This document shows, in pieces, positions 1 through 18,794 of a stretch of 25,404 nt of DNA (position 1 is the stretch's first letter; every line of letters starts with the position of its first letter). Below the pieces are notes generated by a model. It searched no databases. It was given only the letters and a program-made list of their open reading frames with translations, and was not told the DNA's origin. Both the position numbers and the translations under genes were made by a program. The stretch is from a virus (Duplodnaviria > Caudoviricetes): the IMG/VR virus record IMGVR_UViG_3300037458_000153, positions 1 through 25,404 of that record; one strand, 5' to 3'.

Positions 1-15
1 TTGTACCACCGTCAG

Positions 16-131
16 TATGTAGTACGTTAAATAAAAAAGCCGCCAAGAAGTGGGAAAACTTGGCGGCTAACGATTGGTAAGAGAGTTTAAGTGAATTGCA
101 CGTCACTTGCAATTATATAGTCAATCTGATT
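16..131. repeat. Terminal direct repeat, copy 1 (116 bp); circular assembly overlap
   Basis: 16-131 is identical to 25289-25404, implying a unit length of about 25,273 bp. Confidence 0.95.
33..68 (-). terminator. Rho-independent terminator
   Basis: AGCCGCCAAG/CTTGGCGGCT stem with a U-tract on the minus strand, just after the stop at 87. Confidence 0.85.
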
Positions 132-272
132 GATAAAATTGATTCTATTGACTCGTCTCCTGTAGAGCATCAGCTTTCTTTCCTCCAGGGATTTGATCTC
201 CCTGTCTATTCTGTCCACTTCCTCCTGTGCATTCTTTCTCGTGTTCAGTAGATGTAATTGCAATTCTCGCAT
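87..272 (-). CDS. Small coiled-coil hypothetical protein
   Basis: GGAGG SD before ATG 272 (MRELQLHLL...); heptad-like AQEEVDRIDREIKSLEERKL; followed by a terminator. Confidence 0.65.
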   Translation of the reverse strand: MRELQLHLLNTRKNAQEEVDRIDREIKSLEERKLMLYRRRVNRINFINQIDYIIASDVQFT

Positions 273-609
273 TAAGCCTCCCATACCATTTGTCATTAAG
301 AAAGTGTTTTGTAATAAATGCATTGCAGTCGTCCTTTTCTATGATCCAGTAGTTATCACCATCTTTTTCGTACATCTGGTAAGCACCATGATCCTTGTAT
401 GCTTGCCAAGCGTATCTGAGATCAACTGACTTGAATAATCCTATCCATCGAACGCACCCTACAAGGACATAACGTCGAGTCTTGTCAAGGAAGAGTGACT
501 CATTAAACGCAATATATCCGTCGTCTAAAGGATCATATTGCAAATGACATTTCTCGAATCGTAGTCCTTCAGTGGTGATACAATGGGCGGCAAAGTCTAA
601 AAAGTTCAT
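145..609 (-). CDS. Hypothetical protein
   Basis: 154-aa ORF with GAGGA SD; ATGA-coupled to the upstream peptide; C-terminus overlaps the next gene. Confidence 0.7.
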   Translation of the reverse strand: MNFLDFAAHCITTEGLRFEKCHLQYDPLDDGYIAFNESLFLDKTRRYVLVGCVRWIGLFKSVDLRYAWQAYKDHGAYQMYEKDGDNYWIIEKDDCNAFITKHFLNDKWYGRLNARIAITSTEHEKECTGGSGQNRQGDQIPGGKKADALQETSQ

Positions 610-683
610 TCTTCCTCATCTGGGATTATCGCTAGGGTAAAGATCAGTAAAGCCATTGTCATGTAATATAATTCGACAGCCAT
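606..683 (-). CDS. 25-aa hydrophobic peptide, not in the ORF track
   Basis: GAGGAA SD, MAVELYYMTMALLIFTLAIIPDEEE*; fills the gap between neighbours; its TGA overlaps the next ATG. Confidence 0.6.
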   Translation of the reverse strand: MAVELYYMTMALLIFTLAIIPDEEE

Positions 684-685
684 TA

Positions 686-1222
686 TTATTCCTCGTCTAT
701 TCTCAGAAGATGATTTGATTCCATGTGCCAGCCCTTATCTGGCGTCCATAGTTGGGTAGCAATTTGAGCAGCCATGGAGAAATTTACATAGAATGCTCTG
801 CCTGTAGCTAAGTCTGGATCATCAATGGGAAAGTACTTTTCGCAATGGTATTTTCTCTTTTGTTGCTTATGGTATTGGACAAGAATTCGTTTCTCAAACA
901 ATGCCAGATAATCATAGTTGCCCTGAAGATACCAAATTGAATTATCGTTGCGATAGATTCCACTTTTCACCCATTCATTAAAGCCGCCACCTTCTCTTCG
1001 CTTTCGTTCTGCAATCTCAATGCTCAGCCTGTGTGTCTTGCTACAGGGCTCATCTAACTTGACTTCAATATGATTGCAGCTTTCACCAATATTGTACTGA
1101 TTCTTCCTGCTACCATAGAACTGGATGTAAATCCCAAAATCCCTGAGTTGCATCATGCAAAAGTCTTGAAATTCTTGTCCTTTCTGAAAATCTTTGTCTT
1201 CCTGTGTTTCTGTCCTAGCCAT
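686..1222 (-). CDS. Putative PD-(D/E)xK nuclease-fold phage protein
   Basis: G-x-E-F helix, IEVKLD, LSIE and SGI motifs, which I recall from restriction-endonuclease-like phage proteins. Confidence 0.55.
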   Translation of the reverse strand: MARTETQEDKDFQKGQEFQDFCMMQLRDFGIYIQFYGSRKNQYNIGESCNHIEVKLDEPCSKTHRLSIEIAERKRREGGGFNEWVKSGIYRNDNSIWYLQGNYDYLALFEKRILVQYHKQQKRKYHCEKYFPIDDPDLATGRAFYVNFSMAAQIATQLWTPDKGWHMESNHLLRIDEE

Positions 1223-1277
1223 TACGACTCCAAAAGTTGTAATGGGCGTCCTTACCCGAATAAATCCTTTCTATTTG

Positions 1278-1283
1278 TATCTA
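1278..1283 (-). promoter_or_regulatory. TAGATA late-type promoter element
   Basis: TAGATA-caaaT|A upstream of the 1222-to-87 operon. Confidence 0.55.
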
Positions 1284-1323
1284 TCCAGGTAACTAAGATT
1301 TTTAGAGAAAAAATAATTTCCTA

Positions 1324-1353
1324 TTGCAAAAATAAAGATGACAAGACTATATT
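1324..1353 (+). promoter_or_regulatory. Sigma70-like promoter
   Basis: TTGCAA-N18-TATATT. Confidence 0.45.
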
Positions 1354-1764
1354 AAGGTAGCATTTTGAAAAAAGGAGTGATCTGGGCCTAATGCCTGATG
1401 AAGAGAGTGTGATTGATAGCAAGTGAAAAATAGCGATTGTCTTCACATGAAAATGGTAAGTTAAAAACAGTTCCGCAAGCTACAAGACACACAACACCAA
1501 GCCCTATACAGCTTGGTACTTAAGAGTAGGGCAACTAAGGGGAAAAAATAGTTCGCAACTATAGCCCGAACAAATCTTATGTCACAATAAAAAATTCACC
1601 TGCTCTGTCTTACCCTGACAACAGGTGCCGCTAGTACAAAGACACGTGAATTAAGATTTGGCTACTCAACATCAGTCCCTCATGATCATCCCACTGGACG
1701 CCTTAAAGCTTAAGATCTTAAATCTTTCTAAGAGGTACTAGTGGGAAAAGGGTGCGAATATGCC

Positions 1765-1795
1765 TTGACATAATTGATGTAAGTTACTATAGATA
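1765..1795 (+). promoter_or_regulatory. Sigma70-like promoter overlapping a TAGATA element
   Basis: TTGACA-N17-TATAGA; TAGATA at 1790-1795. Confidence 0.55.
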
Positions 1796-1799
1796 TATT

Positions 1800-1864
1800 A
1801 CCCTTAGAAATGCTTTAGGCCCGCCCCCTGGAATTGCGAATCTTCCAGGGGGCTTCTTTTTTTT
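1800..1864 (+). ncRNA. Candidate ~65-nt small RNA
   Basis: Promoter directly upstream, then the GCCCCCTGGAA/TTCCAGGGGGC terminator with U-tract; no convincing ORF. Confidence 0.45.
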
Positions 1865-1938
1865 ATGCCATATAGAATAATCAAAAAATAAGTGATTATT
1901 ACAAATACCTACCTTGAAAGATCCAAGGAGGTATCGGA

Positions 1939-2157
1939 ATGAATAGATGGCTTGAAAGAATTGACTGGATGCTAGAGCAGCATCCCAAAGAATCGCAAAG
2001 AAAGTACCTAGCAAGCGTCCAGAATCAAATTGAACGCTATCCCGCACTTTATCCCACCTTGCCCCAAGAATTGATTTTGGCCCGTCTGTGGCGTCATTAT
2101 AAAAGACTTGAGCGGGAGTCAGTGCTAGGCACCGCTAGCGAGTGCTACGGTAGATGA
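1939..2157 (+). CDS. Hypothetical protein
   Basis: Strong AAGGAGG SD; 72-aa helical-looking sequence. Confidence 0.7.
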   Translation: MNRWLERIDWMLEQHPKESQRKYLASVQNQIERYPALYPTLPQELILARLWRHYKRLERESVLGTASECYGR

Positions 2158-2182
2158 TTTTGCATCAGAAAGTTTTGGCAAC

Positions 2183-2209
2183 AAAAAAGGCCCAGCCTCC
2201 CTGCCGAGC
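2183..2209 (-). terminator. Rho-independent terminator
   Basis: GGCTCGGC/GCTGGGCC stem plus U6 after the stop at 2240. Confidence 0.7.
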
Positions 2210-2239
2210 CAAAACTCTTCTTCTGTGTAAGGTAGTCTA

Positions 2240-2479
2240 TCAGTCTCGTTTTTTATCCCAGCCCAATAGGTGCCTAGCTGTAGGGTGATAGGTGGGATAG
2301 ATGTCAGTGCAGCCACATCTCGGGCAACATGGCGTCTTGCTAGTGAGCCGCCAGATTGTGTAGATGAGTCCTGGGAAACAAGCCATGCACCATAGGACTA
2401 GTTCAATCAGGATGTGTCCTGGCGTCTTCGTAGCTGGGTACTCTACACATAAGCATTTGCCGCATACCATTCGTTCCAT
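2240..2479 (-). CDS. Small membrane protein with split zinc-ribbon (CxxC-hydrophobic segment-CPxCG)
   Basis: GGAGG SD before ATG 2479; CGKC...LVLWCMACFPGLIYTIW...CPRCG, a LITAF-like architecture. Confidence 0.7.
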   Translation of the reverse strand: MERMVCGKCLCVEYPATKTPGHILIELVLWCMACFPGLIYTIWRLTSKTPCCPRCGCTDIYPTYHPTARHLLGWDKKRD

Positions 2480-2513
2480 AAAAGCCTCCACAGTTAGATA
2501 GCTACAAGAAATG

Positions 2514-2614
2514 AAAAAGCCCCACCAGAAAGGAGCAACTCTAAATGGTGGGGCTTATCGGGCGTTCCTGCCCTATCTTATGTCATCCCTGCCACTAGGG
2601 CTCATCCTTGTGAC
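2514..2614 (-). ncRNA. Candidate CsrA/RsmA-binding small RNA
   Basis: Sigma70 promoter, CAAGGAUG, CAGGGAUG, GGGC-AGGAAC-GCCC, then an 11-bp terminator stem plus U5. Confidence 0.55.
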
Positions 2615-2620
2615 GCTTGT

Positions 2621-2648
2621 ATTGTAGCAATATGGATAGCACTGTCAA
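2621..2648 (-). promoter_or_regulatory. Sigma70 promoter
   Basis: TTGACA-N16-TACAAT with an extended -10 TG. Confidence 0.75.
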
Positions 2649-2654
2649 TAGATA
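2649..2654 (+). promoter_or_regulatory. TAGATA late-type promoter, leaderless
   Basis: TAGATA-tgggT-ATG(2660); no SD. Confidence 0.65.
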
Positions 2655-2659
2655 TGGGT

Positions 2660-3460
2660 ATGGCAATTACAACAATAGATCAGGCGTTAGCGGGAATGAA
2701 GCCTCCCGTAGAATTCTACAAAGCCCTAAGTGGCAATATGGTAGCTGGTAGGCCCTTTAGCTACTTTTACAGCAATGGTATTCCTGGCCCAGCAGCAGCA
2801 CCAAGTCCAGGTATCGGTGGTGCTGCCCTTACATCCTATGCTGGCCAACTACCATATACCAATCCATCAAGCGGATATAGTTATCTAGCTCGATTTGTAG
2901 GACAGTGTACGCAAGCTGGGACTTTGGTATTAGCGGATAGATTGTGGCATAACTCGGGCTACACCATTACCAGTAATACAGAACAAACACATACGGGTGC
3001 TGCGGATATTCCTGCCCGAGATGTGAATGGTGCTGCTCTGGGGCATGGTGTATTTGCTGCTGTAGAAGTCAGTAGTGCAGTTGGTGCTGGTACGCCAACA
3101 CTGACACTGAAATATAATAATCAAGACAATACAGAAAAGACTGCTACCAATGTTATCGCTACTGTGGCTAGTAGTGTTGCTGGGACATTTTATCCCATCG
3201 GCCTAGCTGCTGGTGACACTGGCATACGTAGAGCCGTGTCTCTTACATTATCTGCAACTTGGACTTCTGGGACAATTCATACTGTCTTGTATCGTCCGAT
3301 TGCAAGATTACAACTAGGGGCTAATGCTCCTTGGGCTTTAGATTTATTGACATCGGGAATGCCAAGAGTATTTGACAACGCTGTGCCGTTCTTATACTTC
3401 ATTCCCAATACAACAACATCGTCCACGATTCACGGGCAAGTAATTTATACACACGGGTAA
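2660..3460 (+). CDS. Putative virion structural protein, paralog 1
   Basis: Ala/Gly/Thr-rich, beta-type composition; start moved to 2660 because the paralog also begins MAITT. Confidence 0.7.
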   Translation: MAITTIDQALAGMKPPVEFYKALSGNMVAGRPFSYFYSNGIPGPAAAPSPGIGGAALTSYAGQLPYTNPSSGYSYLARFVGQCTQAGTLVLADRLWHNSGYTITSNTEQTHTGAADIPARDVNGAALGHGVFAAVEVSSAVGAGTPTLTLKYNNQDNTEKTATNVIATVASSVAGTFYPIGLAAGDTGIRRAVSLTLSATWTSGTIHTVLYRPIARLQLGANAPWALDLLTSGMPRVFDNAVPFLYFIPNTTTSSTIHGQVIYTHG

Positions 3461-3463
3461 TTT

Positions 3464-4282
3464 ATGGCAATAACAACATTAGCTGGGGCTGTCAGTGGAA
3501 TAAAGCGTGTGAATGAAATGCAACGTTCTGCACAAACATATACCACCACTATACCACTAAGCCATTTCTTCGTTAGCGGATATCCTACACCTGCCGCAGC
3601 ACCAACTCCTGGAATTGGCGGTACAACGTTAACTAGTTACGCTGGCCAAATCAATTTTGATAATCCCAGTAGTGGCAACACTTATTTATACAATTTTACT
3701 GCTAGTAATCAATCTTTGGGTACAGTGTGGCTATGTGATCGGCTGTGGCACAATAGCGGCATTACTATCACCTCCAACACAGAACAGACATTTACTGGCT
3801 CTGTAGATATTCCTGCCAGAGACATGAACGGTGCTGCTCTGGGACATGGCGTCTTTGCTGCTGTAGAAGTCAGTAGCACAGTTGGATCAGGTACACCAAC
3901 ATTAACTTTGAAATATAAAAATCAAGATAATGCGGAAAAGACTGCCACAAACATTATGGCAACTGTAGCAAACGCAGCAGCAGGCAGTTTTTATGTAATT
4001 GGCTTAGCTGCTGGTGACACTGGCATACGTAGAGCCGTGTCTCTTACATTATCTGCAACTTGGACAAGTGGGACAATTCATGTAGTGTTATATCGTCCTA
4101 TTGCTAAGCTTGCTATGTCCAGCACATTTGGATCGGGTAGGAATGATTCACAAAACAATTTGTGCTGTGTGTCGGTGGGATTTCCTAGGCTATATGACAA
4201 TAGCGTACCATTTATCGTGCATTCTAGTGGAACGTCTAACACAACTGGGCAGAGTGCCACAGTGCAATTTACACAGGGATAA
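3464..4282 (+). CDS. Putative virion structural protein, paralog 2
   Basis: Clear paralog (DRLWHNSG, DIPARD, AAGDTGIRRAVSLTLSATWTSGTIH). Confidence 0.7.
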   Translation: MAITTLAGAVSGIKRVNEMQRSAQTYTTTIPLSHFFVSGYPTPAAAPTPGIGGTTLTSYAGQINFDNPSSGNTYLYNFTASNQSLGTVWLCDRLWHNSGITITSNTEQTFTGSVDIPARDMNGAALGHGVFAAVEVSSTVGSGTPTLTLKYKNQDNAEKTATNIMATVANAAAGSFYVIGLAAGDTGIRRAVSLTLSATWTSGTIHVVLYRPIAKLAMSSTFGSGRNDSQNNLCCVSVGFPRLYDNSVPFIVHSSGTSNTTGQSATVQFTQG

Positions 4283-4285
4283 TTA

Positions 4286-6706
4286 ATGCGTGGACAGCAA
4301 ATCAGATCATCCTGGAATACTCCAGCGATATGGATGTTGGTAAATGATCCATTCAGGCAATGGTGGCTTGGATTCCATTACACTGAGGCTGTCACTGGCA
4401 GTATTAAGTTAGGTGGTGTTGCTACAGAATCTTATGTTCCAGCTAGTGGCTCCAGTACTTACAACGAGTCCATGTCTGGTGGCACTAAGGCTGATGGTGA
4501 TACCACAGAGTTGTTCACATACAACGTAGTGATGTCTGGTGGCACCAAGGCCAATGGTGATACCACAGAACTATTACACTATAATGCATCGGTGAGTGGT
4601 GGCACCAAGGCTAATGGTGATACCACAGAACTATTCAACTATAATGCATCGGTGAGTGGTGGCACCAAGGCTAATGGTGATACCACAGAGCTATTGACTT
4701 ATAATGCATCTGTGAGCGGCGGCACTAAGATTAGTGGTGCTGCTGTTGCCTCACTGATTCGCACTGCGGTGGTATCTGGTGGAACTAAGCTTAGTAGCAC
4801 TGCTGTTGCGTCACTGATTCATACTGCGGTAGTATCTGGTGGCACTAAGCTCAGTGGTGCCTGTGTTAATGTGGGCACCTATGCGTTGAATGTTAGCGGT
4901 GGCACTAAGCTCAGTGGTGCCGCCTATGTACTGGGCAGTGTAACATACAACGAAAGCATGACTGGTGGTGCTAAGCTCAGTGGTGATGCTACCATAAAAT
5001 CGATTTACACTTTTCCAGTCAGGGAAACGCCACACACTTGCACTGTTACTAGAGGCACAACTACAGATCCAGTCACTACCACTTGGCTTAAAGACTCCAA
5101 TTTCCACATGGTGAGGGAGGTAACTGGTGCTACTGGTATAAGCTACATGTTGTATTTTGGTAACGTTCCAAGATTGGGCATTACTAGATCATTAAGAATC
5201 AATGTGCGATATGCGGGCAGTGATGGACATATATGTTACTTACAACTCTACAATTACACCACATCGACTTACGATAATCTTATTCAATTACCCGAAACTG
5301 CTGGCTTTGTAGATCGCAATTTTGCAATTACGGATGACTACTTTAGCCCCTTTGACTACTATAGCGGTGCCAATAATGCAGTATTCAAAGTAGATCATCC
5401 AAGCCCTGGTAACATCAATCATTGGGTGGGTATTGATGAACTAATCATCACGTCCAACACTGGTACTGAACTTAGTGGCTCAGCAAATGTTTCTGTAGTA
5501 TATGCTTGTGACATGAGCAATGGTGCCAAGCTTAATGGTGCTTGCGATGAAAGTCTAAATGAATCCACGAACACGTATAATGAAACAATGTCTGGTGGTG
5601 TCAGACTCAGTGGACTGACTATCCACACTCATTACGTGAATGCCGATATGTCTGGCGGCACGAAGCTTAGCGGGACTAGCACACTAGTAACACAGTATAG
5701 TCAGACAATGTATGGTGGCTCTAAAGTCAGTGGTAATGCAGCCTCCACATCCCGCTATACATCAACTGCACTAGGTGGTGCTAAGCTCAGTGGATATGTG
5801 GATATATCTGAGTCTGGCGTTATCAACGAGACTATGAGCGGTGGGCTTAAACTTGATGGTACGGCAAGACTAGTTCGCTTGCTATATTCTGATGTTTCGG
5901 GTGGTATCAAGAGTGCTGGGGAAGTGGAAAGATTGTATACACTCAATCCTATGGCCTCTGGTGGCATCCTAGCTGTAGGCAACAGTAACAAAATCAATAT
6001 AGGACGCCCAGATGAGGATACCAACACTGGGCTATACTGGACACAAGATCCACCGTTTTGGAGCAAGCTAAATGAATCTGTGGCTGGCACATTTGTTCAT
6101 TGTGCTTTACCGCTTGGGTACAGCAACACTCTAGAAGTGGGCATGTCTGGCAATACAAGGATATCACCGAATATATCAGTCAATTTCATGTATAGGATGA
6201 GCGTACAGACTAGGATGACAGTAGTAGCCTCTGTGGTATGTGGCAGTACTGTAATAGCTTCCTGGACAACTAGTGGTGGTGGACTGGTAACTTATAGCAG
6301 AAAACTTACAGAAGCACAGATTGCTAACATCACTGACTTCAGTGATGTGCGAGTACGATTCGTTTGCACCAGCACTAATATTTCCCCAGTGAGTGCGTAC
6401 ATTTATTGGGCCAGATTGTATGTTGAAAATGCTGGGATGGCGGATGTCGAATTTACATACAATCCCGTTGTCTCGGGCGGGGCTGAGCTAGCTGGTGTGC
6501 CTTACGTTCTTGGCATCGGGGCTCATGTCATGCGGGCTACCACCACCACAGGTATACAGTTTGATAGTTTGACGGACATTGCAGCAAGGCTATCTGGCAG
6601 GAATGATATTGGCATTGGTATATCTGCGGACACAGGCGTAGAGGCCCAGTGGTACACACAGACTGAGCTTGATCTTAAGGAGACGGCTGCTTTACACGTC
6701 CTATAG
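4286..6706 (+). CDS. Repeat-rich putative tail fibre/adhesin
   Basis: 806 aa; ~20-aa SGGxK(L/A)xG repeats interrupted by two non-repetitive beta-rich domains. Confidence 0.7.
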   Translation: MRGQQIRSSWNTPAIWMLVNDPFRQWWLGFHYTEAVTGSIKLGGVATESYVPASGSSTYNESMSGGTKADGDTTELFTYNVVMSGGTKANGDTTELLHYNASVSGGTKANGDTTELFNYNASVSGGTKANGDTTELLTYNASVSGGTKISGAAVASLIRTAVVSGGTKLSSTAVASLIHTAVVSGGTKLSGACVNVGTYALNVSGGTKLSGAAYVLGSVTYNESMTGGAKLSGDATIKSIYTFPVRETPHTCTVTRGTTTDPVTTTWLKDSNFHMVREVTGATGISYMLYFGNVPRLGITRSLRINVRYAGSDGHICYLQLYNYTTSTYDNLIQLPETAGFVDRNFAITDDYFSPFDYYSGANNAVFKVDHPSPGNINHWVGIDELIITSNTGTELSGSANVSVVYACDMSNGAKLNGACDESLNESTNTYNETMSGGVRLSGLTIHTHYVNADMSGGTKLSGTSTLVTQYSQTMYGGSKVSGNAASTSRYTSTALGGAKLSGYVDISESGVINETMSGGLKLDGTARLVRLLYSDVSGGIKSAGEVERLYTLNPMASGGILAVGNSNKINIGRPDEDTNTGLYWTQDPPFWSKLNESVAGTFVHCALPLGYSNTLEVGMSGNTRISPNISVNFMYRMSVQTRMTVVASVVCGSTVIASWTTSGGGLVTYSRKLTEAQIANITDFSDVRVRFVCTSTNISPVSAYIYWARLYVENAGMADVEFTYNPVVSGGAELAGVPYVLGIGAHVMRATTTTGIQFDSLTDIAARLSGRNDIGIGISADTGVEAQWYTQTELDLKETAALHVL
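4472..4990 (+). repeat. Coding ~60-bp tandem repeat
   Basis: GGTGGCAC(C/T)AAG recurs about every 60 bp; near-identical units at 4530-4710. Confidence 0.9.
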
Positions 6707-6989
6707 CAGTTAGCTCTTGGTATAGCTGGGACTGTCCATCTACGGCTGTAACGGCAATGATGTATTCCCGATCTTCCACCATGTATTGCGTGATTTGCCA
6801 TGGTACGATTGCATGGTAATTGCCATTTGTATCATCAGCCACAAAGGATAGGGGACTGCCCATGCTTGTGGAGTCAGATAATATTTGGGCTTCCACATCA
6901 GCATTGCTTATGGGCAGTCCTGTTACGTTGTCGGTGAGATCGGATAGGCGGATGACGTTATCGGATGCGATATAAATTACGTGACTCAT
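6675..6989 (-). CDS. Small Ig-like virion protein (BppU N-terminal-like)
   Basis: LSDLTDNVTGLPISNADV...GNYHAIVP...EYIIAVTA beta-sandwich pattern; leaderless start. Confidence 0.55.
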   Translation of the reverse strand: MSHVIYIASDNVIRLSDLTDNVTGLPISNADVEAQILSDSTSMGSPLSFVADDTNGNYHAIVPWQITQYMVEDREYIIAVTAVDGQSQLYQELTAIGRVKQPSP

Positions 6990-6994
6990 ACGGG

Positions 6995-7000
6995 TATTTA
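6995..7000 (-). promoter_or_regulatory. TAAATA late-type promoter, leaderless
   Basis: TAAATA-cccgT-ATG(6989). Confidence 0.7.
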
Positions 7001-7004
7001 GTGC

Positions 7005-7052
7005 TTGACTCCCGCTTTTGCTATGGTATGGTGATAAGGGGTACTATCACCA
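7005..7052 (+). promoter_or_regulatory. Sigma70-like promoter with overlapping palindrome
   Basis: TTGACT-N16-TATGGT; TGGTGATA-N8-TATCACCA at 7029-7052. Confidence 0.55.
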
Positions 7053-7067
7053 ATAGGAGCTAAAGCT

Positions 7068-7343
7068 ATGGCCAAACGTCCAGCACCGCAAAAGAAGTGT
7101 GTCAAGAAGGGCTGTGGGGAGATGATGCACGCCCGTAAGAATGTCTGTCCTAAGTGTCAGACATTACAGCCAGTGAAAGAAAAGCCAGTCTCAGAGCCAA
7201 AGCCAGAGCCAGAAAATGAATTGATCAAACAGCAAACGCCCGAGTTTGTGATTATTGAAGCTATCCGCTTTGTCAGGGTATGTGGCGGTATCGGTAGGGC
7301 AATCACATTGCTGGAAGAATTGTACAAACTTCCTAGGGCATAG
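7068..7343 (+). CDS. Small basic zinc-finger protein, possibly DNA-binding
   Basis: AGGAG SD; CxxxxC...CPKC, Lys/Pro-rich linker, helix-GG-helix C-terminus; own promoter and terminator. Confidence 0.7.
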   Translation: MAKRPAPQKKCVKKGCGEMMHARKNVCPKCQTLQPVKEKPVSEPKPEPENELIKQQTPEFVIIEAIRFVRVCGGIGRAITLLEELYKLPRA

Positions 7344-7349
7344 GATACC

Positions 7350-7396
7350 AAAGCCCAGCCCCATACAACAAGTATGAAGCTGGGCTTTTTTGTTTA
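7350..7396 (+). terminator. Rho-independent terminator between convergent genes
   Basis: AAAGCCCAGC/GCTGGGCTTT stem plus U-tract. Confidence 0.8.
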
Positions 7397-7417
7397 ACTG
7401 CCACCATGGCAGTACCT

Positions 7418-8890
7418 TCATTCGAATAAACTATCTACCTCTTCATAAGGGATATCGGACAGCCCAAAGAATTCAACGCTCTTCCCAGACTTGTAAAACA
7501 CCTTGCCACATAATCCGCCACCTTGCTTTTCCAATTCCACCCGATCAATCAAACTTCTGAGCTTACTGCCCAGTGCTGTCAACAAGGCCCTACGCTCATC
7601 TGTACCCTTGCTTTTCTTAAGCTCCTGCCATGCCCACCTGATACCCGCTACCGTATCCTCTACCTTGTTGGCTTGCTCTGCTTTGACAGTTTCTATCTGA
7701 TCGGATACCTTGTCCTTCTCTTGCTCCAGCTTGGCCAATAGGACTAACAGGCTGTCTATGTTAGGCGTCTTGTCCACTGCTTTGATGGTGGCATTTATCT
7801 TGGCCACTATGCCCTCTAGCTTGACTTGTAACGAGTCCAGCCGATTATCCTGGACTTTGTTAGGCTCTATCTGTGTCTCCGTTACAACAGCCAATACGGA
7901 ATACAGGACAGCTTGTAGCGGGACACTCCAATATTTCCCATCAGCTTCAATAGCCGCAGATGGTACTAATTGTTTTTGTCCTGTGGCTCTGGTGATAGTA
8001 TACATGGTGCTGTTGCTGGCTTTATCCTTGCATAGTCCTTGCAACGGATTGACACTTCTGGGACGTGGCCCATGGTGGCGATGCTTTCTACTATTGATGG
8101 CAGCTTGGGCTTGATAGTAAGTGTCATTGTCTATTATGGCTGGATAATACTGGCAGTTGAAAGCCTCACCTAATACCAGTCTGCCAGTCAGAATCTTAAG
8201 GACATATCCTTTTTGCCATGTGGTAGCTTTGGATATGGGAGGAATCTTATCGGTATTGAATCGCCTACAGATTGCTTCAATGCCATAGCCTTCAATGGAT
8301 AAAGCAAATATCTGGCGGACAATAGCCGCTTTCTTTTCAATGACTTCCCACTTGCCTTTATTCAGTTTGAGCCAGCAAGGACAACGAGCGGAGACAATAG
8401 TATTTTCAGCATTGGCCAACTTAGCTTGCCAAGCTCTACCCACCCGCTCAGATTTCTTTTGGGATTCTTCTGCGGCTAGGATGAGTTCGATAGCGAACTC
8501 GGTAACACCAAAGCCTTTCAAGTCATCCTTGGTAAGGATACGATTCTTACGGACATGGCCAATATTTATTCCAGCCCTGAGTATCTGTCCGAATAATGCC
8601 AAGGACTGATCAAGATCCAAGCGGCTCAGTCTGTCTAATTGCTCAACAACTAGGACTGATCCTTTAGGAATTTTGCCTTGTTCGACAGCCTTAATGAATA
8701 CACCCAAGGCCCCCTTGTCTTTGTTCTTCCCGAGTCTGGCGGATATTCCAGCGTCCAGGTAGGTAGTGGGACTGGGTGTGAGCTTGTGAAAGTCACAGAA
8801 GCGGGTGAAGTCCTCAGACTGTCTACGCTTACTGTCACCTGTGGATTGATCGGGATGGCTCCACCTGACGTAGGAAATGGCGATACACAT
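7418..8890 (-). CDS. Large serine recombinase (integrase)
   Basis: YVRWS catalytic motif, DAGISA, LVVEQLDRLSR, recombinase domain (YPAIID) and coiled coil. Confidence 0.93.
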   Translation of the reverse strand: MCIAISYVRWSHPDQSTGDSKRRQSEDFTRFCDFHKLTPSPTTYLDAGISARLGKNKDKGALGVFIKAVEQGKIPKGSVLVVEQLDRLSRLDLDQSLALFGQILRAGINIGHVRKNRILTKDDLKGFGVTEFAIELILAAEESQKKSERVGRAWQAKLANAENTIVSARCPCWLKLNKGKWEVIEKKAAIVRQIFALSIEGYGIEAICRRFNTDKIPPISKATTWQKGYVLKILTGRLVLGEAFNCQYYPAIIDNDTYYQAQAAINSRKHRHHGPRPRSVNPLQGLCKDKASNSTMYTITRATGQKQLVPSAAIEADGKYWSVPLQAVLYSVLAVVTETQIEPNKVQDNRLDSLQVKLEGIVAKINATIKAVDKTPNIDSLLVLLAKLEQEKDKVSDQIETVKAEQANKVEDTVAGIRWAWQELKKSKGTDERRALLTALGSKLRSLIDRVELEKQGGGLCGKVFYKSGKSVEFFGLSDIPYEEVDSLFE

Positions 8891-8891
8891 G

Positions 8892-8962
8892 TTGATTCCC
8901 CCGTGATTAGTTTACCACAGTACATCAACATATACGCTACCAAACTAATCTAGGGGAATCAA
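8892..8962. other. Candidate attP site
   Basis: GATTAGTTT/AAACTAATC and GTACAT/ATATAC symmetric about AA at 8927-8928; outer TTGATTCCCC/GGGGAATCAA; abuts the integrase start. Confidence 0.65.
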
Positions 8963-8990
8963 GCGGGTAATCTTAATGCTGTCGGGCTAC

Positions 8991-8996
8991 TAAATA
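8991..8996 (+). promoter_or_regulatory. TAAATA late-type promoter, leaderless
   Basis: TAAATA-cccgT-ATG(9002). Confidence 0.7.
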
Positions 8997-9001
8997 CCCG
9001 T

Positions 9002-10465
9002 ATGCACAATGATGAATCAACAGACTGGCTTGGCTACCCCAAGGACATCAAGCACTACACCCCCCAAGAGGATGTAGAATATACATTCGACAATTTACCT
9101 AGGGATTTGCCCCCAGGTATCTGGGATAATCCCAAGCCCGATGAAATGGATGCCTATGACGAATTCCTTAAGGCATGGAATCAAGGCGAGGAAGAACTAA
9201 AGGAACACTGGCAGTCTACCGCTGAGGAAGGCGATACGATCAGAGCCTTAGCTTACTCCTGCATCACCAAGGGCTGTGATTGCACCAGTGGAACTTATGA
9301 AAAAGCTGACGTAATTGCCACAGCCGATGACGGTATGTGGGATGTACTTCATTACACATTCACCACAGCAGAAGTGTACTTTGGCTCCACATATGTGATT
9401 GCTGCGGGTGACTTGGTGGAATTACCACCAGCAGATGAAGGTGTGGTATCTGCATTAGGTGAAGGCTGGCATCCTAAGTCCTGCTTTACACGGCATGTGG
9501 ATGTAGATGTCCCGCCCAATACGGAAACTAGCACCACCGTCATTAACTATGCCCGCCTAAAGTTCTGGGCAATAGACAATTCTCTGACTGGTGCTAGTGC
9601 TATGATCAGTGGTATTGAGTCTGCAACTTCACCCACTAGCGGCTACTCTGCACAGACTTGGGAACGCACCGAAAGCCGAGTGTATTGGGATGCTGGAGCA
9701 TGGACAGCAGGAAGCATTTACTACAGTCCCAATATTGCTTGCGTCATCCAGGAAATTATTGATGGGCCTAGTTGGCGTAGTGGCGATGATATCCTAATGT
9801 TTCTGGATGGCTATGGGACAAGTCTAAATGAAGCATATGATTACGCTGATGATGCAGCCAAGTCAGCAGACTTAGAAATCTGGTGGGTAATCCACCACAA
9901 CATAAGTATGAGTGGTGGCGTCAAGTGTGATAGCTCAGCCAATGTCGCAGCCATATACACCATACCGATGAGTGGTGGAATAAAGCTAGGCACTGAATCA
10001 TTCTATGGCCTGACTTTCAATCAGCCAGTGAATGTACATGGTAGAGTGTGGCTAAGCGGCTTTGCTGATGTGTCGATATCTGTTCCGATGCGTGGCGGAA
10101 TCAAAGTAAACAGTACTGCTAGAGTCACGAATAATTTCAGCACTATCATACTTGGTGGTGTGAAACTAAGTGGACGTGCAGTGAAGCCTAGTTTCCCAAG
10201 TGGCTTTACCACTCGACATACTATCATTGTTCCCGCTGGTGCCGTTACCGCTGATCTCACAGGATTCTTGCTGGGTATCGTGGCCACCATTGATGCATCG
10301 ATGGTATCTGACAATATTTTTGCCATCACAGATACAAGCAATAATGTATTGCCACATGACTTCCGTAAGTTGAGCGGCAATGAACTCACACTGTATTTCA
10401 AGTGTGATCTATTAGCAGACAGTGACAATGTATTTTACTTGAACTATGGGGATGAGCATGTCTGA
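9002..10465 (+). CDS. Putative adhesin/tail-associated protein with C-terminal DUF2341-like domain
   Basis: Acidic N-terminus, SPNIACVIQEIIDGPSWRSG beta-domain, SGG repeats, ITDTSNNVLPH...FYLNYG ending. Confidence 0.6.
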   Translation: MHNDESTDWLGYPKDIKHYTPQEDVEYTFDNLPRDLPPGIWDNPKPDEMDAYDEFLKAWNQGEEELKEHWQSTAEEGDTIRALAYSCITKGCDCTSGTYEKADVIATADDGMWDVLHYTFTTAEVYFGSTYVIAAGDLVELPPADEGVVSALGEGWHPKSCFTRHVDVDVPPNTETSTTVINYARLKFWAIDNSLTGASAMISGIESATSPTSGYSAQTWERTESRVYWDAGAWTAGSIYYSPNIACVIQEIIDGPSWRSGDDILMFLDGYGTSLNEAYDYADDAAKSADLEIWWVIHHNISMSGGVKCDSSANVAAIYTIPMSGGIKLGTESFYGLTFNQPVNVHGRVWLSGFADVSISVPMRGGIKVNSTARVTNNFSTIILGGVKLSGRAVKPSFPSGFTTRHTIIVPAGAVTADLTGFLLGIVATIDASMVSDNIFAITDTSNNVLPHDFRKLSGNELTLYFKCDLLADSDNVFYLNYGDEHV

Positions 10466-10691
10466 GAAAGAAGCAAGAGAATGGCTGACTAAACGTGTCA
10501 TTAGAATACTAGCCCCGCCTAGCTGGAAACGTGATGAGGATGGCGCACAGATTTATTCTGTGCATTGTGCGATACTTGAGCGAGATGCATATTTGTGTGC
10601 TGTATTGTACGACAACATATTGTTTAGGGTGAAGGATGGGGACTGGCAATTAGCAGATAATAGATGGAGGGTGGTAGATGGCAACGTATAG
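10458..10691 (+). CDS. Hypothetical protein
   Basis: Overlaps both neighbours; likely start MSEKEA. Confidence 0.6.
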   Translation: MSEKEAREWLTKRVIRILAPPSWKRDEDGAQIYSVHCAILERDAYLCAVLYDNILFRVKDGDWQLADNRWRVVDGNV

Positions 10692-11571
10692 CGAATCAAT
10701 GTCCAAGGGTATGAAGCTATCGGGCAAGTCCCGCATTACGATGATCAATTCATCTAGGACTTGCTTCTGTAGTCCACCCGATGTGGACTATGAAGAGGTA
10801 ATGTCTGGCGGCGTATCCCTTAGTGGCTCTGCTGACGTGTGGGACAATAAGATACGTGGCGGTATTTATGCTGGTGGTACAGCCCGAGTCTCAGTAGCTA
10901 CACAGCCATGGGATGAATACGTAATGGTGTTACCATTAGATGAAACAAGTGGCACTGTCTATTACGATCACACCACTAGACATCTAGATGGTACTGGCAC
11001 TGCCACACCCGATATTGGCCCGTTCTGTTCTGGCAGTCAACACTTCGATGGACTAACAGAATACATTACTTTGCCCTACGATAATTACCATGGGCCATTC
11101 ACTGCCACAGCTTGGATCAAGATAGAAGATATCTTCTCTGCTCGCATGTGGTACAGCCGTGGACATACTACCCTTACCGACAAATGGTATTTCACCCAAG
11201 GACATAGTTTCATCAATCACTTAGCTGGACGGGTACAGAACACAGACAGCACTGCCATGGAAGCTTATAGCACTACCACAATGGATGCTGGTGAATGGTA
11301 TCATGTGGCCACATCGTATGATGGCAGTTCATTCAGCCAACATATTGATGGCATTGATGAAGGTAGTTGGGATTCCACTGGTAGTCCTGTGACTGGGACG
11401 AATGGTGGCTATATCGCTAGGTATGAAGGTGGCCAGCCGTATGCTGGGAATGTGCAAGAGCTACGATTGTATGGTGGCATACTATCTACAGCTTGGCTCA
11501 AAGCAGAATATGATAACTGGTGCAATCCAGAGTTTTATCATGTCAGCAAAAAGATGTTACCTACTTGGTGA
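10678..11571 (+). CDS. LamG/concanavalin-A-like domain protein
   Basis: FDGLTEYI, FTATAWIK, GEWYHVATSYDG, GNVQELRLY...LS motifs; GGAGG SD. Confidence 0.85.
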   Translation: MATYSESMSKGMKLSGKSRITMINSSRTCFCSPPDVDYEEVMSGGVSLSGSADVWDNKIRGGIYAGGTARVSVATQPWDEYVMVLPLDETSGTVYYDHTTRHLDGTGTATPDIGPFCSGSQHFDGLTEYITLPYDNYHGPFTATAWIKIEDIFSARMWYSRGHTTLTDKWYFTQGHSFINHLAGRVQNTDSTAMEAYSTTTMDAGEWYHVATSYDGSSFSQHIDGIDEGSWDSTGSPVTGTNGGYIARYEGGQPYAGNVQELRLYGGILSTAWLKAEYDNWCNPEFYHVSKKMLPTW

Positions 11572-11724
11572 TTTGCCACAGTTACATGGCTTCTTATTGA
11601 TTGATGGCGGTAAGCTTCTGACTGGCTTGCCCTGACATTCACGTTCTGTATTGACTGGCGATGGCTTGCCACATATCTTACAAATAAATCCAGCCATTCT
11701 AGCTTTGGCATAGTTACATTTCAT
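11557..11724 (-). CDS. Small Cys-rich protein
   Basis: GAGGAG SD, ATGA coupling; CKICG...CNCGK. Confidence 0.7.
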   Translation of the reverse strand: MKCNYAKARMAGFICKICGKPSPVNTERECQGKPVRSLPPSINKKPCNCGKSPSR

Positions 11725-12386
11725 ACTATCTCCTCTGTTGCCCAAGTGTACCATCGCTCAAGAAAGTCACAGTTATAGCCGCACAGGGCAGAGCCTAGGA
11801 TATTGCTATCACAGCCTACCAATACAATACCGTCACCTAATTGTTCAAGAGCAAAGATCTGTTCTTGCACATCACGTCGATAGCCTACCGTAGTACCACC
11901 ATCCACATAGCCAGTACAAGCGTAAGTGATATCGATACCTTGTGCGATACCCGCAGATCCAGGAGCCATAATCCATGGGCCATCAATATTACCACAGGTA
12001 CAGTCTACTATGCCTTCTCTTACTCTTAGTTCTGAGCCAATACCTTCTAGTAGTTCATTGATTGTGGTAAATCCATATGGCCACATGCAGCCATTGTATT
12101 CACCACTGACATACAGCCTACCACCCTCATTGATCCAGTCAGCCAGATAGGAATAATGGAAACTAGTGAAGTAAGTGCCAGTACAGCAATTATCACAGCC
12201 ACAGAATACAAAGTCACACTTGCTAAGTTTGGTGGTGATGTTCATGCCAACAGATAAATCAGTTTGAACACCTTTACTATCTGGGCAAAGGCAATAACGT
12301 GGATTTAACCATTCGTATTGTTCATAGCCAATGCGACATCCTGTTTTCTCACAGCAGCTACACCCTGGCTGAAAACGTACTGCCAT
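11721..12386 (-). CDS. Cys-rich distal tail-region protein
   Basis: GCSCC N-terminus and many Cys; GAGGAGG SD; third gene after the tape measure. Confidence 0.65.
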   Translation of the reverse strand: MAVRFQPGCSCCEKTGCRIGYEQYEWLNPRYCLCPDSKGVQTDLSVGMNITTKLSKCDFVFCGCDNCCTGTYFTSFHYSYLADWINEGGRLYVSGEYNGCMWPYGFTTINELLEGIGSELRVREGIVDCTCGNIDGPWIMAPGSAGIAQGIDITYACTGYVDGGTTVGYRRDVQEQIFALEQLGDGIVLVGCDSNILGSALCGYNCDFLERWYTWATEEIV

Positions 12387-12991
12387 TATTCCTCCTCTTG
12401 GCAGTTAGCTCCACTTACCCACCAGACACCCTCACCAAAGCTAAGTTGTATAAGACTTGCTGGGGTGTTAGTGGAATCTAAGTCCATGTACCAAGGATTG
12501 TGAATGTCCACGCTTTGCCCTGCTGTATAACTGGTGCCATCAAAATTCTTAGTGGTAGCTGTGGATTTACCTGGGGCTGTGGCTGTACCTTTGGGAATTG
12601 TCCCAGTAAAGGTGGCCATCTTGACGCCTGGAGAATAATCAAACACATAGTATGGATTTGTCTCTGCTCCCCTCATCCACACAATATCATCCGTCAATAC
12701 CCATTTAGATCCAGTGGCTTCTACTGCCCAATATTCTTCATCGCTATGACTACCTGTGGGATAATCCTCATCTGGATCTTCAGTAATGTAGCCATCTTCA
12801 TCTGGCTTGAGTGCTTCCCAACTGTAGTACCCGCTACCGTCACTGCCAGTTATCCTAGCCCAGAAAGCTCTAGGATAATATCCTTTGGCTCTATCGGTAG
12901 GCTCAGGCGCACCTGTATTCATTCGCTCATATTGAATCACTGCTTCAGCAGTACGTTTCTTTTCTTCAGATGTGAATCGGGCAAACGCCAT
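12386..12991 (-). CDS. Putative tail tip protein
   Basis: Position in the tail operon, TAATG coupling. Confidence 0.6.
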   Translation of the reverse strand: MAFARFTSEEKKRTAEAVIQYERMNTGAPEPTDRAKGYYPRAFWARITGSDGSGYYSWEALKPDEDGYITEDPDEDYPTGSHSDEEYWAVEATGSKWVLTDDIVWMRGAETNPYYVFDYSPGVKMATFTGTIPKGTATAPGKSTATTKNFDGTSYTAGQSVDIHNPWYMDLDSTNTPASLIQLSFGEGVWWVSGANCQEEE

Positions 12992-13830
12992 TAGAACACC
13001 GTATAAGGAAGTGGTGGATAGATTTCAAAATAATGGAAGTAAGGTGTTGTCCCACTACCTGGAAGAATACGCTTACCGTTTTGATCCAGTGGCACAGGAT
13101 CATTACAGATTGCTCCATCAATGATGACTGGCTTCAGTTTCCCTGTTGCGGAGTCATACTCACGCATACCCCTAGACTCGATCCACACACCATGACGATA
13201 TGGATTGAAAAGGAATTCAATCGTTGTCTTGTAGTACGTACCAATAGTCTTGTTGTATGCAGATGATACTGAGGCATTCATACAACGCCATGTTCTAGGT
13301 GGCATTCCCTGGAATGGCGTAGCATTCACACTGTTGACGTAGTACATGAAAATACTACCAGCGTCATACCAAAGATTGCGGGATACCTGGAGTACAGCAC
13401 AGCTTACATCCTTTTGAATCTGATTAGCAAAGAGATCCCCAGCCGTATTGCGGATGGGATTGCCATACACGTCATACCACACAGGGCTTTGTGTATTCAC
13501 AAATGAGCGGGAATATTGGGTAGGCTCATTGAGTGGATTGTCTTGCTGTTGCTGTTCACTCAGTGTGCCGTACTGAGCGGTAACGTGCCAGCTATATCCA
13601 TCATCGCCATGGGGTGTGGCTTGAATAGATTTACAGAATGAATAGGAATCTGACTCGGTGCCGTTGTTGTATACATCACCATAGTTCAGCCCAATTGCGG
13701 CACAGGCTGTAGCTGGGCCATCTAGTTTGGAATTCGTTTCCACATACCACACTCGGGTGTATGTGTTCTCATCCTTATTCCATTGTCCCTGGCGATTTTC
13801 AAATAGTTCGGTGCATTTAGTGACTGCCAT
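12991..13830 (-). CDS. Putative distal tail/hub protein
   Basis: Directly follows the tape measure; beta-rich. Confidence 0.6.
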   Translation of the reverse strand: MAVTKCTELFENRQGQWNKDENTYTRVWYVETNSKLDGPATACAAIGLNYGDVYNNGTESDSYSFCKSIQATPHGDDGYSWHVTAQYGTLSEQQQQDNPLNEPTQYSRSFVNTQSPVWYDVYGNPIRNTAGDLFANQIQKDVSCAVLQVSRNLWYDAGSIFMYYVNSVNATPFQGMPPRTWRCMNASVSSAYNKTIGTYYKTTIEFLFNPYRHGVWIESRGMREYDSATGKLKPVIIDGAICNDPVPLDQNGKRILPGSGTTPYFHYFEIYPPLPYTVF

Positions 13831-13836
13831 AAAAGG

Positions 13837-13842
13837 TATTTA
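13837..13842 (-). promoter_or_regulatory. TAAATA late-type promoter, leaderless
   Basis: TAAATA-cctttT-ATG(13830). Confidence 0.7.
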
Positions 13843-13854
13843 TGGTAGCAACAC

Positions 13855-15888
13855 CTAGAATGGTACGTCATCGTATTCGATGCTGGCAAGCTTCTGGAGG
13901 TACGTCACCATATTCTTTTGGTATTCCGTTTGATCCTTGGAATACTTGGCTATGTCCTTGGTATCCTTATCAACGTCCTTTTTGGGCGTCCCATACATGG
14001 TAGACAGATAGTCTGTATAAGCTTCCTGGCTGCCCATGGTGGCGATATCTGCGTATTTGGGCTGTCCACCCATTCCTAAGATGTCCTGTTGAGCTTGCTG
14101 AATACCTCTAGCAATCAAAGCGGGATCAGCCCCAGCCTGTAGCAATTGATCAAGCTCAGCAATCTTTTGCTGATATTGTTCCATGGGATTCCTTGTCTCT
14201 TCCCATAGTTGCTTGGCGGCTTCCCTGTTTTTCTTCTGCTTTTCCAGTTGCTCCATCTGTTTGAATTGAGCTTGAATGGCTTGGTATTCCTGCTGGGTGA
14301 CGCCACCTGACTTATTGAATCCGTCAATGATATTGAAGAAATCCTTGTCACTTTCGCTAAGCCAGAATGATCCTACTTCCTTTTGCTTCTGCTGGATATA
14401 CTTCATTACGCCATCTGCCCGCTTCTTTTCCTCTAGCTCCTTAGTCAATCTGTTGGCTTGTGCTAGATCGGCACCCTTGAGTCCCGATTCCCTCAGTTGC
14501 TTTTGGGCGTCAGTCTCCCCAAAGTGTTCTATGTCGCCACGTAGCTTGGCAATATATTCAGCAGCCTTCTTGGCATCCTCTCGCCACTTCTCCATGGCAT
14601 CGCTGGCGTCCAGCTTAGCAATCAAGTCTTTAGCTTCCTGGAGTTCGGGGCCTGCTAGTCCTCTGCCCAAAGCGTCATATAATCCTTTTTGCCTAGAGGA
14701 CATACCTAACGTATTGTATTCTTCACGTAGACTAGCAAGGTAATCCTTGTTCTTTTCAAGTCCCTTAAGCATTTCCTCGTTGGCGACAGTTATCCCATCA
14801 ATAGAATTGGCCACACCATTTTGGGCAGTAGTTGTTTCATTTGCTATACCCAACATACGTTCCATAGCGTCCGCACCAGCATTCATAGACTCTTCGGCTT
14901 TACCCAACATATCATCAGCAAACGCATCGCCAACACCAGTTATCATTGCAAATATTTTTGCAATGCCACCGATGATGAAGTTGATGATACCCTGCAAAGT
15001 CTTGAAAATTACCATCGTAAACTGGACGACTTTTTGTATGACTATCGCCACTGCTTTCAAAGCTTCGGCTACTACCCACACATAGTCTCCCCAGTCCTTG
15101 GTGTTGGGTAGCAATTCCTGAAGCGTATCTAAGATGATGTCCAAGACGGGTGTAATCGCCACAGTAAATTGACGCCACATACCTGTAACTCTACCTGTGA
15201 CATCTTCCCATTTGTCCTTCATCTCGCCTAAAGCTCTGGCCTGAGTGGTAGAAATGATCAGTCCTAATTCCTCTGCCTTCTTACGGTACTCATCCATGGC
15301 AGCCCCGCCAGCCCTGAACAATGGATCAAGCTTGGCTCCAGTCTCTTTGAATAGTTTCATAAGGATGGCAATACGATCACCTTGATTGCTGATCTTACTG
15401 ATAGCATCAGAAATAGCCTTGAATTGCTGATCACCTGACATGTTGTTTAGGGCTTGGACATCCAGTCCCAGACGTTGGAATACAGCAGAAGCTTCACCAA
15501 TACCATTGGCAGCCTCACTGATAGAACGTTGCATCTTAGCCATAACTGTACCTACCTCTTCAGCAGATACGTCTAGTTTTTCAAAGGCATATTGCAATCC
15601 GATGACGGCTTCCGCAGATACGTTGAATCGCTCAGACAATTTGTTTACTTTGTCAAGCTCATCAATCTGTTGGCCAACATTAGTTATCACAGAACGTAAA
15701 GCCATGAAGCCAGCAGCAGCCACACCAGCGGCAGTAGCTAATGCACCCAGTCCAGGAATGGCAGATGTAATACCGCCCATCATACTAGTGGCGGCACCCT
15801 TTACATCCTTACCAGCTACAGCTAATCCTTTCTTAAGATCAGCCGTCTGGACTTTCATTCCAATTACTACTTGCCCGACTACCGCCAC
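13855..15888 (-). CDS. Tail tape measure protein
   Basis: Long helical Ala/Gly/Lys-rich protein after the chaperones; GGAGG SD before GTG 15888. Confidence 0.9.
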   Translation of the reverse strand: MAVVGQVVIGMKVQTADLKKGLAVAGKDVKGAATSMMGGITSAIPGLGALATAAGVAAAGFMALRSVITNVGQQIDELDKVNKLSERFNVSAEAVIGLQYAFEKLDVSAEEVGTVMAKMQRSISEAANGIGEASAVFQRLGLDVQALNNMSGDQQFKAISDAISKISNQGDRIAILMKLFKETGAKLDPLFRAGGAAMDEYRKKAEELGLIISTTQARALGEMKDKWEDVTGRVTGMWRQFTVAITPVLDIILDTLQELLPNTKDWGDYVWVVAEALKAVAIVIQKVVQFTMVIFKTLQGIINFIIGGIAKIFAMITGVGDAFADDMLGKAEESMNAGADAMERMLGIANETTTAQNGVANSIDGITVANEEMLKGLEKNKDYLASLREEYNTLGMSSRQKGLYDALGRGLAGPELQEAKDLIAKLDASDAMEKWREDAKKAAEYIAKLRGDIEHFGETDAQKQLRESGLKGADLAQANRLTKELEEKKRADGVMKYIQQKQKEVGSFWLSESDKDFFNIIDGFNKSGGVTQQEYQAIQAQFKQMEQLEKQKKNREAAKQLWEETRNPMEQYQQKIAELDQLLQAGADPALIARGIQQAQQDILGMGGQPKYADIATMGSQEAYTDYLSTMYGTPKKDVDKDTKDIAKYSKDQTEYQKNMVTYLQKLASIEYDDVPF

Positions 15889-15889
15889 A

Positions 15890-16512: not shown

Positions 16513-16513
16513 A

Positions 16514-16927: not shown

Positions 16928-16935
16928 AAATTATT

Positions 16936-16965
16936 CCTCATAGAAAAGAGACTATGAGGTATTTA
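16936..16965 (-). promoter_or_regulatory. TAAATA promoter with SD-sequestering hairpin
   Basis: TAAATA then CCTCATAG-N8-CTATGAGG. Confidence 0.75.
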
Positions 16966-16968
16966 TGA

Positions 16969-18711: not shown

Positions 18712-18716
18712 AAATC

Positions 18717-18722
18717 TATTTA
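18717..18722 (-). promoter_or_regulatory. TAAATA late-type promoter, leaderless
   Basis: TAAATA-gattT-ATG(18711), directly after a terminator-like hairpin. Confidence 0.7.
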
Positions 18723-18724
18723 GC

Positions 18725-18755: not shown

Positions 18756-18794
18756 ATCTGTAACATGTGGAGCGTGTTACCTAATTCTTATGTA

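Follow-up and report, generated by a model that had tools for sequence, protein, structure and literature searches.

A phage transcription unit with CsrA-type motifs as a possible low-capacity CsrA-binding RNA and leader

Can a phage draw off the CsrA of its host with an RNA of its own? The question is raised by a short intergenic stretch of IMGVR_UViG_3300037458_000153, a virus record from wetland metagenomes; the whole record, 25,404 bases in length, was analyzed here and is called the window. The first-pass annotation of this stretch had seen in it a host-sigma-driven small RNA that titrates host CsrA through repeated GGA loops, in the manner of CsrB, RsmY, and RsmZ.

A profile scan of the phage genes identified an HK97-type head, a tail, a terminase, and a large serine recombinase. 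Although classed as 40% complete, the record probably represents a whole circular genome of about 25.3 kb, because its last 116 bases (25289-25404) exactly repeat bases 16-131. No replication, lysis, or CI-type gene was recognized among the ORFs scanned, and csrA is absent from the record. A circle of this size that carries head, tail, and integrase genes and no recognized replication, lysis, or CI gene could possibly have a satellite-like lifestyle. The serine recombinase gene (7418-8890) is flanked by two paralogous, repeat-rich clusters of tail/decoration genes (2654-6706 and 9002-11571), which are oriented opposite to the main morphogenesis operon.

A promoter, three motifs, and a terminator

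The minus-strand transcription unit at 2648-2514 is real (Table 1). The TTGACA-N16-TACAAT promoter, the perfect 11-bp terminator stem, the GGGC-AGGAAC-GCCC hairpin, and two further motif sites were all found where the first-pass annotation had placed them. Promoter and terminator 1 lie about 100 bases apart, with the three CsrA-type motifs in between. The promoter matches the consensus at 11 of 12 positions and is the best among 22 promoter-like sites in 1-8000; shuffles of that region hold a mean of 16.8 promoter-like sites at 9/12 or better. Transcription would start near 2614 and terminate at 2514. By inspection, the RNA strand has only frames of 10 and 2 codons, neither with a Shine-Dalgarno sequence, making this a predicted short RNA with its own promoter, an intrinsic terminator, and no ORF of note. 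The fold of the unit has a z score of -3.1, and 1 of 200 shuffles was as stable. Terminator 1 alone folds at -21.5 kcal/mol and holds the anti-Shine-Dalgarno-like CUCCUUUC in its loop; such long loops are frequent among the terminators of this phage.

Table 1. Positions of the features in and around the unit, numbered along the window
Feature	Position	Strand	Details
T4-late-promoter-like motif of the divergent first tail gene	2649-2662	plus	TAGATA-5 nt-ATG; abuts the unit's -35 box
Sigma70-type promoter	2648-2621	minus	TTGACA 2648-2643, 16 nt, TACAAT 2626-2621, extended -10 TG
CsrA-type site 1	2610-2603	minus	CAAGGAUG
CsrA-type site 2	2591-2584	minus	CAGGGAUG
CsrA-type site 3	2573-2560	minus	GGGC-AGGAAC-GCCC: AGGAAC loop, 4-bp G-C stem, closing C-G
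Antisense 17-codon ORF	2530-2598	plus	Shine-Dalgarno-like AAAGGAG, ATG 2545; probably incidental
Terminator 1	2556-2514	minus	perfect 11-bp stem 2556-2546/2527-2517, 18-nt loop, five U 2518-2514
79-aa ORF with GGAGG Shine-Dalgarno	2489-2240	minus	Shine-Dalgarno 2489-2485, ATG 2479
Terminator 2	2210-2183	minus	loop AGGGAG closed by C-G

Are the motifs more than an accident of composition? Three GGA by themselves are at chance level: 53% of 100,000 shuffles of the 57-nt body contain them. The longer motifs exceed chance. Because their definitions were fixed post hoc, with the sequence already known, the tests are supportive and not formal: three CA(R)GGA fell in the 57-nt body in 0.26% of shuffles, a pair of CARGGAUG within 60 nt arose in 1 of 500 shuffles of the window, and three CA(R)GGA fell within 60 nt anywhere in the window in 108 of 500. 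Two further clusters of three CA(R)GGA exist in the window (17169 and 8041), both inside genes. Among 159 other terminators from phage and prophage loci, none is preceded within 60 nt by more than one CA(R)GGA, and a survey of 1.98 Mb turned up 10 further promoter-terminator units, all without a motif. In the two thirds of IMG/VR that were scanned, 2 of 98 viral matches to a promoter plus two motifs had a terminator, and neither was similar to the unit. Hairpins of the form C-A(N)GGA(X)-G, with at least 4 bp, were counted as well. Genome-wide there are three, equal to the shuffle mean of 3.1; two of them fall in the 184 non-coding bases of the unit, which happened in 8 of 20,000 shuffles. The unusual feature is the placement of the motifs, between a near-consensus promoter and a terminator.

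The DNA upstream of the promoter is the coding start of a divergent tail gene with a signal of another kind. TA(A/G)ATA followed 5 to 6 nt on by ATG, a motif resembling the T4-type late promoters described in PMC2984593, occurs 8 times (2649 and 8991 on the plus strand; 7000, 13842, 18722, 22528, 16965, and 20111 on the minus strand) against a shuffle mean of 1.5 and a maximum of 7 in 300 shuffles, and six of the occurrences precede real genes. Since the TAGATA motif is late-promoter-like, the sigma70-type promoter of the unit would be of another class, one driven by the host, and competition between the two promoters would be expected. The TA(A/G)ATA motifs precede structural genes that lack a Shine-Dalgarno sequence and share no common -35 element, suggestive of T4-late-like promoters and leaderless mRNAs. 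No sigma factor was recognized among the scanned ORFs of this siphovirus-type genome; a helper phage or an alternative sigma factor of the host may serve these motifs.

What the RNA may bind and what it resembles

How well would the motifs be displayed? Site 3 is predicted to lie in a loop and site 2 to be single stranded (unpaired probability, 0.91 to 0.99). The GG of site 1 is predicted to be buried in a 5' hairpin for all starts from 2620 to 2614 (unpaired probability, 0.00 to 0.04), at an opening cost of 4.2 kcal/mol. Single-stranded A(N)GGA motifs, and those with a purine at N, are reported to bind well, with micromolar binding for a single-stranded site (PMC4005645). The sites are spaced 19 and 20 nt apart. 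These spacings suit bridging by one CsrA dimer, because a dimer is reported to bridge sites 10 to 63 nt apart and to do so best above 18 (PMC7652899).

Tentatively, and with slightly less than even confidence, we read the unit as a low-capacity CsrA-binding small RNA and leader that stands outside the Rsm/Csr family. Constitutive transcription by a host sigma factor, mostly ending at terminator 1, would yield an RNA of about 100 nt able to bind about one CsrA dimer, presumably by spanning sites 2 and 3; site 1 would open only when CsrA is abundant. The result would be a modest titration of host CsrA and perhaps an effect on its targets, possibly in the integrated state. Occasional read-through of the five-U terminator 1 is predicted to allow expression of a 79-aa accessory gene (described below).

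How does this compare with the known decoys? RsmX, RsmY, and RsmZ of Pseudomonas and CsrB and CsrC of Escherichia coli are described as having lengths of about 100 to 130 nt, an intrinsic terminator, repeated A(N)GGA(X) motifs, a C-G pair closing the loop site, and a single-stranded site between hairpins (PMC4005645), and in these respects the phage RNA is alike. It differs in capacity, with three motifs (four with read-through) and one loop, whereas RsmZ has 8 GGA and four loops (PMC4005645) and CsrB has 22 GGA; the sites are fewer than in most known sponges, as the first-pass annotation had noted. The known decoys mostly show their motifs in hairpin loops and are activated through BarA-UvrY or GacS-GacA. 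It also differs in having a consensus housekeeping-type promoter, in doubling as a leader, and in being phage borne, probably outside the Gammaproteobacteria. The comparison by Infernal with the Rfam Csr/Rsm covariance models, which that annotation had proposed as a check, gave no match for the unit at E values up to 5; three weak matches lay elsewhere in the window, none of them to Csr/Rsm. The RNA is not a member of the Rsm/Csr family.

A host-sigma RNA with CsrA-type motifs, as first claimed, is favored by the motif enrichment, a probable CsrA-positive host lineage, the 19- to 20-nt spacing, and a fourth CsrA-type loop downstream. The motifs are there. The description of a sponge acting through repeated GGA loops was overstated, with only one of the three predicted in a loop, one predicted to be buried, no Rfam match, and no homologue found.

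Relatives were sought widely. Pattern searches found 0 of 20 distinct IMG/VR matches with a promoter or terminator, 0 of 102 matches with both in half of that collection, and 0 of 65 distinct matches with a terminator in JGI metagenomes. Against cultured phages and plasmids, blastn gave no match to the unit, and a DNA search of 401 Planctomycetota genomes returned 26 chance-level pieces (20 inspected) and no homologue. A single-sequence covariance model found no match in 151 genomes, where it was run without a positive control, and in 74 sources its matches were the terminators of the window itself plus a single weak one. The upstream regions of 19 of the 21 tail-gene relatives and of the 51 relatives of the 79-aa gene were covered, and none has such an RNA. 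The integrase, a 178-aa gene, and the distal tail gene led to no close viral locus, and the related phages, at 80 to 92%, are known as proteins only. Because no homologue was found anywhere searched, the RNA offers neither conservation nor covariation. Promoter-terminator units at two other loci (L513 and L478) were considered as relatives and rejected as unrelated one-offs.

The downstream gene and other readings of the leader

What follows the short RNA? The first-pass annotation overlooked a 79-aa gene that begins 35 nt past terminator 1, finishes at terminator 2, and has no evident leader other than this RNA. Because the gap leaves no space for another promoter, the short RNA doubles as the leader of this gene. 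The loop of terminator 2 is the fourth CsrA-type site, present in the read-through RNA only. In the encoded protein, a hydrophobic helical hairpin splits a CxxC...CxxC zinc ribbon, and the likeness to Pmp3/YqaE is weak (Pmp3 E value of 0.018, under the cut-off); its predicted fold, with a pLDDT of 68.5, had no PDB match at an E value of 0.001. Relatives occur at 51 viral loci, where, with no more than two ORFs upstream examined at each locus, the neighbors are repressor/Cro-type genes at 9 and tail-tube/chaperone regions at 5. By these likenesses the gene appears to be a mobile phage accessory gene. None of the 51 relatives has a leader terminator with CsrA-type motifs upstream, and such a leader is therefore not a usual part of the gene.

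In a side observation, the loci L163 to L213 define a widespread phage protein family with a zinc ribbon split around a Pmp3-like hairpin and a GLIYSxWR motif, often positioned after repressors or within tail morons; none of the Pfam, PHROG, and NCBIfam families exceeded the cut-off for it.

The unit might then be an ordinary accessory-gene (moron) cassette in which a strong host promoter is damped by a leaky terminator, keeping a small membrane protein low, with the GGA motifs as incidental purine-rich sequence and the short RNA as a by-product. We consider this unlikely, though it keeps appreciable weight. The 79-aa ORF has a good Shine-Dalgarno sequence and no space for its own promoter, its relatives are mobile accessory genes with the neighbors just described, terminator 1 has just five U, its long loop is of a type common in the phage, and three GGA by themselves are at chance level. 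Against it stand the motif enrichment relative to the 159 other terminators, the second CsrA-type loop in terminator 2, and the lack of a motif-bearing terminator upstream of any of the 51 relatives.

Is the region transcribed? Two metatranscriptomes, which were chosen for containing the unit's stretch and in which DNA carry-over is possible, yielded contigs at 2220-2475, 2277-2427, and 2432-2582, covering the 79-aa ORF in both. The contig at 2432-2582 spans terminator 1, which fits read-through. In neither run did a contig lie wholly within the predicted RNA of about 100 nt; the contigs are unstranded and have a depth of about 2. Over 1-20000 there were 9 and 6 contigs, capsid, head, and tail genes included, and the RNA-run contigs show an active phage. 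Another contig, at 1375-1525, falls in 1223-1938, a 700-nt stretch of AT-rich non-coding DNA with a hairpin at about 1820-1850 that is a candidate origin or regulatory region.

Could CsrA itself set the read-through? In a TRAP-like attenuator, the 5' region of the free RNA would pair with the 5' arm and loop of terminator 1 as an antiterminator and permit read-through, while CsrA bound at site 2 would restore the terminator and turn the gene off. We regard this as improbable. There are precedents in TRAP and in the pgaA leader, which CsrA is reported to remodel for Rho termination (PMC7652899, PMC4347634). In predictions, nascent RNA of 83 to 91 nt pairs about 6 of the 11 arm bases and about 11 of the 18 loop bases with the 5' region, at -24.9 kcal/mol, and blocking site 2 removes most of this pairing and lets the terminator nucleate 2 to 4 nt earlier. 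Yet the observed energy gap was reached by 17%, 45%, and 49% of shuffles in three designs, duplex tests against shuffles gave 0.32, 0.11, and 0.03, the complete terminator has a stability advantage of 15.5 kcal/mol, and blocking site 1 alone leaves the antiterminator pairing in place.

In run X1, a single contig of depth 2 (bin depths reproduced) joins about 2180-2238 to 2556-2579, with a short side of 24 nt and the intervening letters unread. The joint sets site 3 beside terminator 2 and skips terminator 1 and the 79-aa gene; it was not seen in run X2 at a stricter threshold. When folded, such a variant is predicted to carry four motifs in about 115 nt. This is a weak lead that some relative carries the RNA without the 79-aa gene, and to that extent it speaks for the preferred reading. 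In a more elaborate story, one could imagine a planctomycete phage in which the CsrA-bound leader terminates and the released RNA serves as a decoy, in which depletion of CsrA would favor the antiterminator and switch the membrane gene on, and in which terminator and gene were inserted into an older four-site decoy. As a whole this scheme is quite improbable.

What of the loop of terminator 1? Its exposed CUCCUUUC might pair with ribosome-binding sites, in trans or on the antisense 17-codon ORF in the manner of a type I antitoxin, with CsrA a secondary partner as in McaS. The loop is the exact complement of the Shine-Dalgarno sequence and AUG on the other strand, transcription of the plus-strand gene at 1939-2157 could extend into it, and base-pairing small RNAs with at least two GGA are reported to bind CsrA (PMC7652899). 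This reading, too, is quite improbable, for the antisense 17-aa peptide is not hydrophobic, the AUG is within the 11-bp stem, and when the loop was paired with 31 other start regions of the phage, no duplex was stronger than -15 kcal/mol and no target stood out. A true type I toxin-antitoxin pair was rejected on the character of the same peptide and on the 79-aa gene being on the same strand as the RNA. The plus-strand gene is an orphan ORF of 72 aa with a strong Shine-Dalgarno sequence within a hairpin; it is probably a real gene, because run X1 has related sequence at depth 2.

Finally, the motifs might bind some other protein, such as an ANTAR-type antiterminator or a helper-phage factor. 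ANTAR proteins recognize hairpins in tandem, each with an A1/G4 hexaloop. The A-N-N-G hexamer pattern is present at sites 1 and 2, but these are not predicted hairpin loops, and site 3 lacks G4. The layout of leader, terminator, and gene is typical of antitermination as described in PMC4347634, yet no hairpin overlaps the terminator arm and no such protein was recognized among the scanned ORFs of the window. This is the least probable of the readings, and very improbable.

A probable host phylum and the wider Csr setting

A low-capacity CsrA-binding RNA needs a host with CsrA. Which host is it? Ranking the 80 genome loci found with the capsid by the 29 window genes put Lacipirellula (9 genes), Phycisphaerales (9), and Gemmataceae (8) forward. 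A Ralstonia locus likewise shares 8 of the 29, two of five Planctomycetota loci share the capsid only, and the capsid gene by itself does not name the host. Relatives of the distal tail gene were found in 3 of 301 Planctomycetota genomes, the only phylum searched. On one contig, from a planctomycete prophage, 13 of the 29 window genes have counterparts, tail-tip genes included. Integrase look-alikes are mostly from Pseudomonadota, and searches of an atlas and of representatives pointed to no host. On these gene likenesses the host is probably a member of the Planctomycetota.

Do such bacteria have CsrA? All 7 Planctomycetota genomes reached through related prophage genes carry csrA, as do 80 of 201 sampled genomes of the phylum, with up to 17 copies; none was seen in the other 121. 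A high prevalence of csrA in Planctomycetota is also reported in PMC13443453. The RNA-binding arginines are kept in 19 of the 20 loci read, and FliW was present in 2 of 5 planctomycete genomes checked. The promoter type followed by a downstream CANGGAY occurs in 114 of 401 Planctomycetota genomes, versus about 15 for a reversed control that was counted by eye. Single CsrA-type loops (AAGGAA, C-G closed) are seen in the intergenic regions of planctomycete prophage tail operons at two loci (L575, 915-940, minus strand; L368, 13393-13407), one of the two hairpins being a terminator loop ahead of a tape-measure gene. The terminator loop of L575 was considered as a relative of the unit and set aside as an unrelated one-off.

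Several other systems share parts of this design. StxS of lambdoid Stx phages is described as a short regulatory leader RNA made from a phage promoter active in the lysogen and ended by a near terminator (PMC7547250). It differs in its Q-controlled late promoter and Hfq-dependent pairing (PMC7547250), whereas the phage unit has a single accessory ORF downstream and CsrA as its predicted partner. McaS and GadY of E. coli and the 5' UTR of fimA in Salmonella are few-GGA RNAs or leaders reported to titrate CsrA as a second job (PMC7652899, PMC13501541), although all are chromosomal, enterobacterial, and without sequence likeness to the phage RNA. The TRAP-trp leader of Bacillus subtilis and the CsrA-pgaA leader of E. 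coli are alike in that a protein on repeated short motifs decides leader termination; they differ in that the phage antiterminator lacks statistical support and pgaA termination is Rho dependent.

Phages and plasmids are known to plug into host Csr/Rsm networks with CsrA/RsmA proteins of their own (PMC7366521, PMC8450108), for which a damping of host defenses such as CRISPR-Cas has been proposed (PMC8450108, PMC7366521). Such proteins add a repressor; the phage RNA would remove one and so, if the preferred reading is true, act with the opposite sign. It would then also be an RNA antagonist of CsrA outside the Gammaproteobacteria, and in a phylum whose genomes can each carry as many as 17 copies of csrA and often lack FliW. 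Literature searches that covered open-access papers found neither a CsrA decoy RNA encoded by a phage nor an intrinsic terminator gated by CsrA.

Elsewhere in the window, the intergenic stretch at 20049-20394, before the capsid gene, has three hairpins, two of them terminator-like, and a sigma70-like promoter, and could possibly encode a short RNA or control capsid expression.
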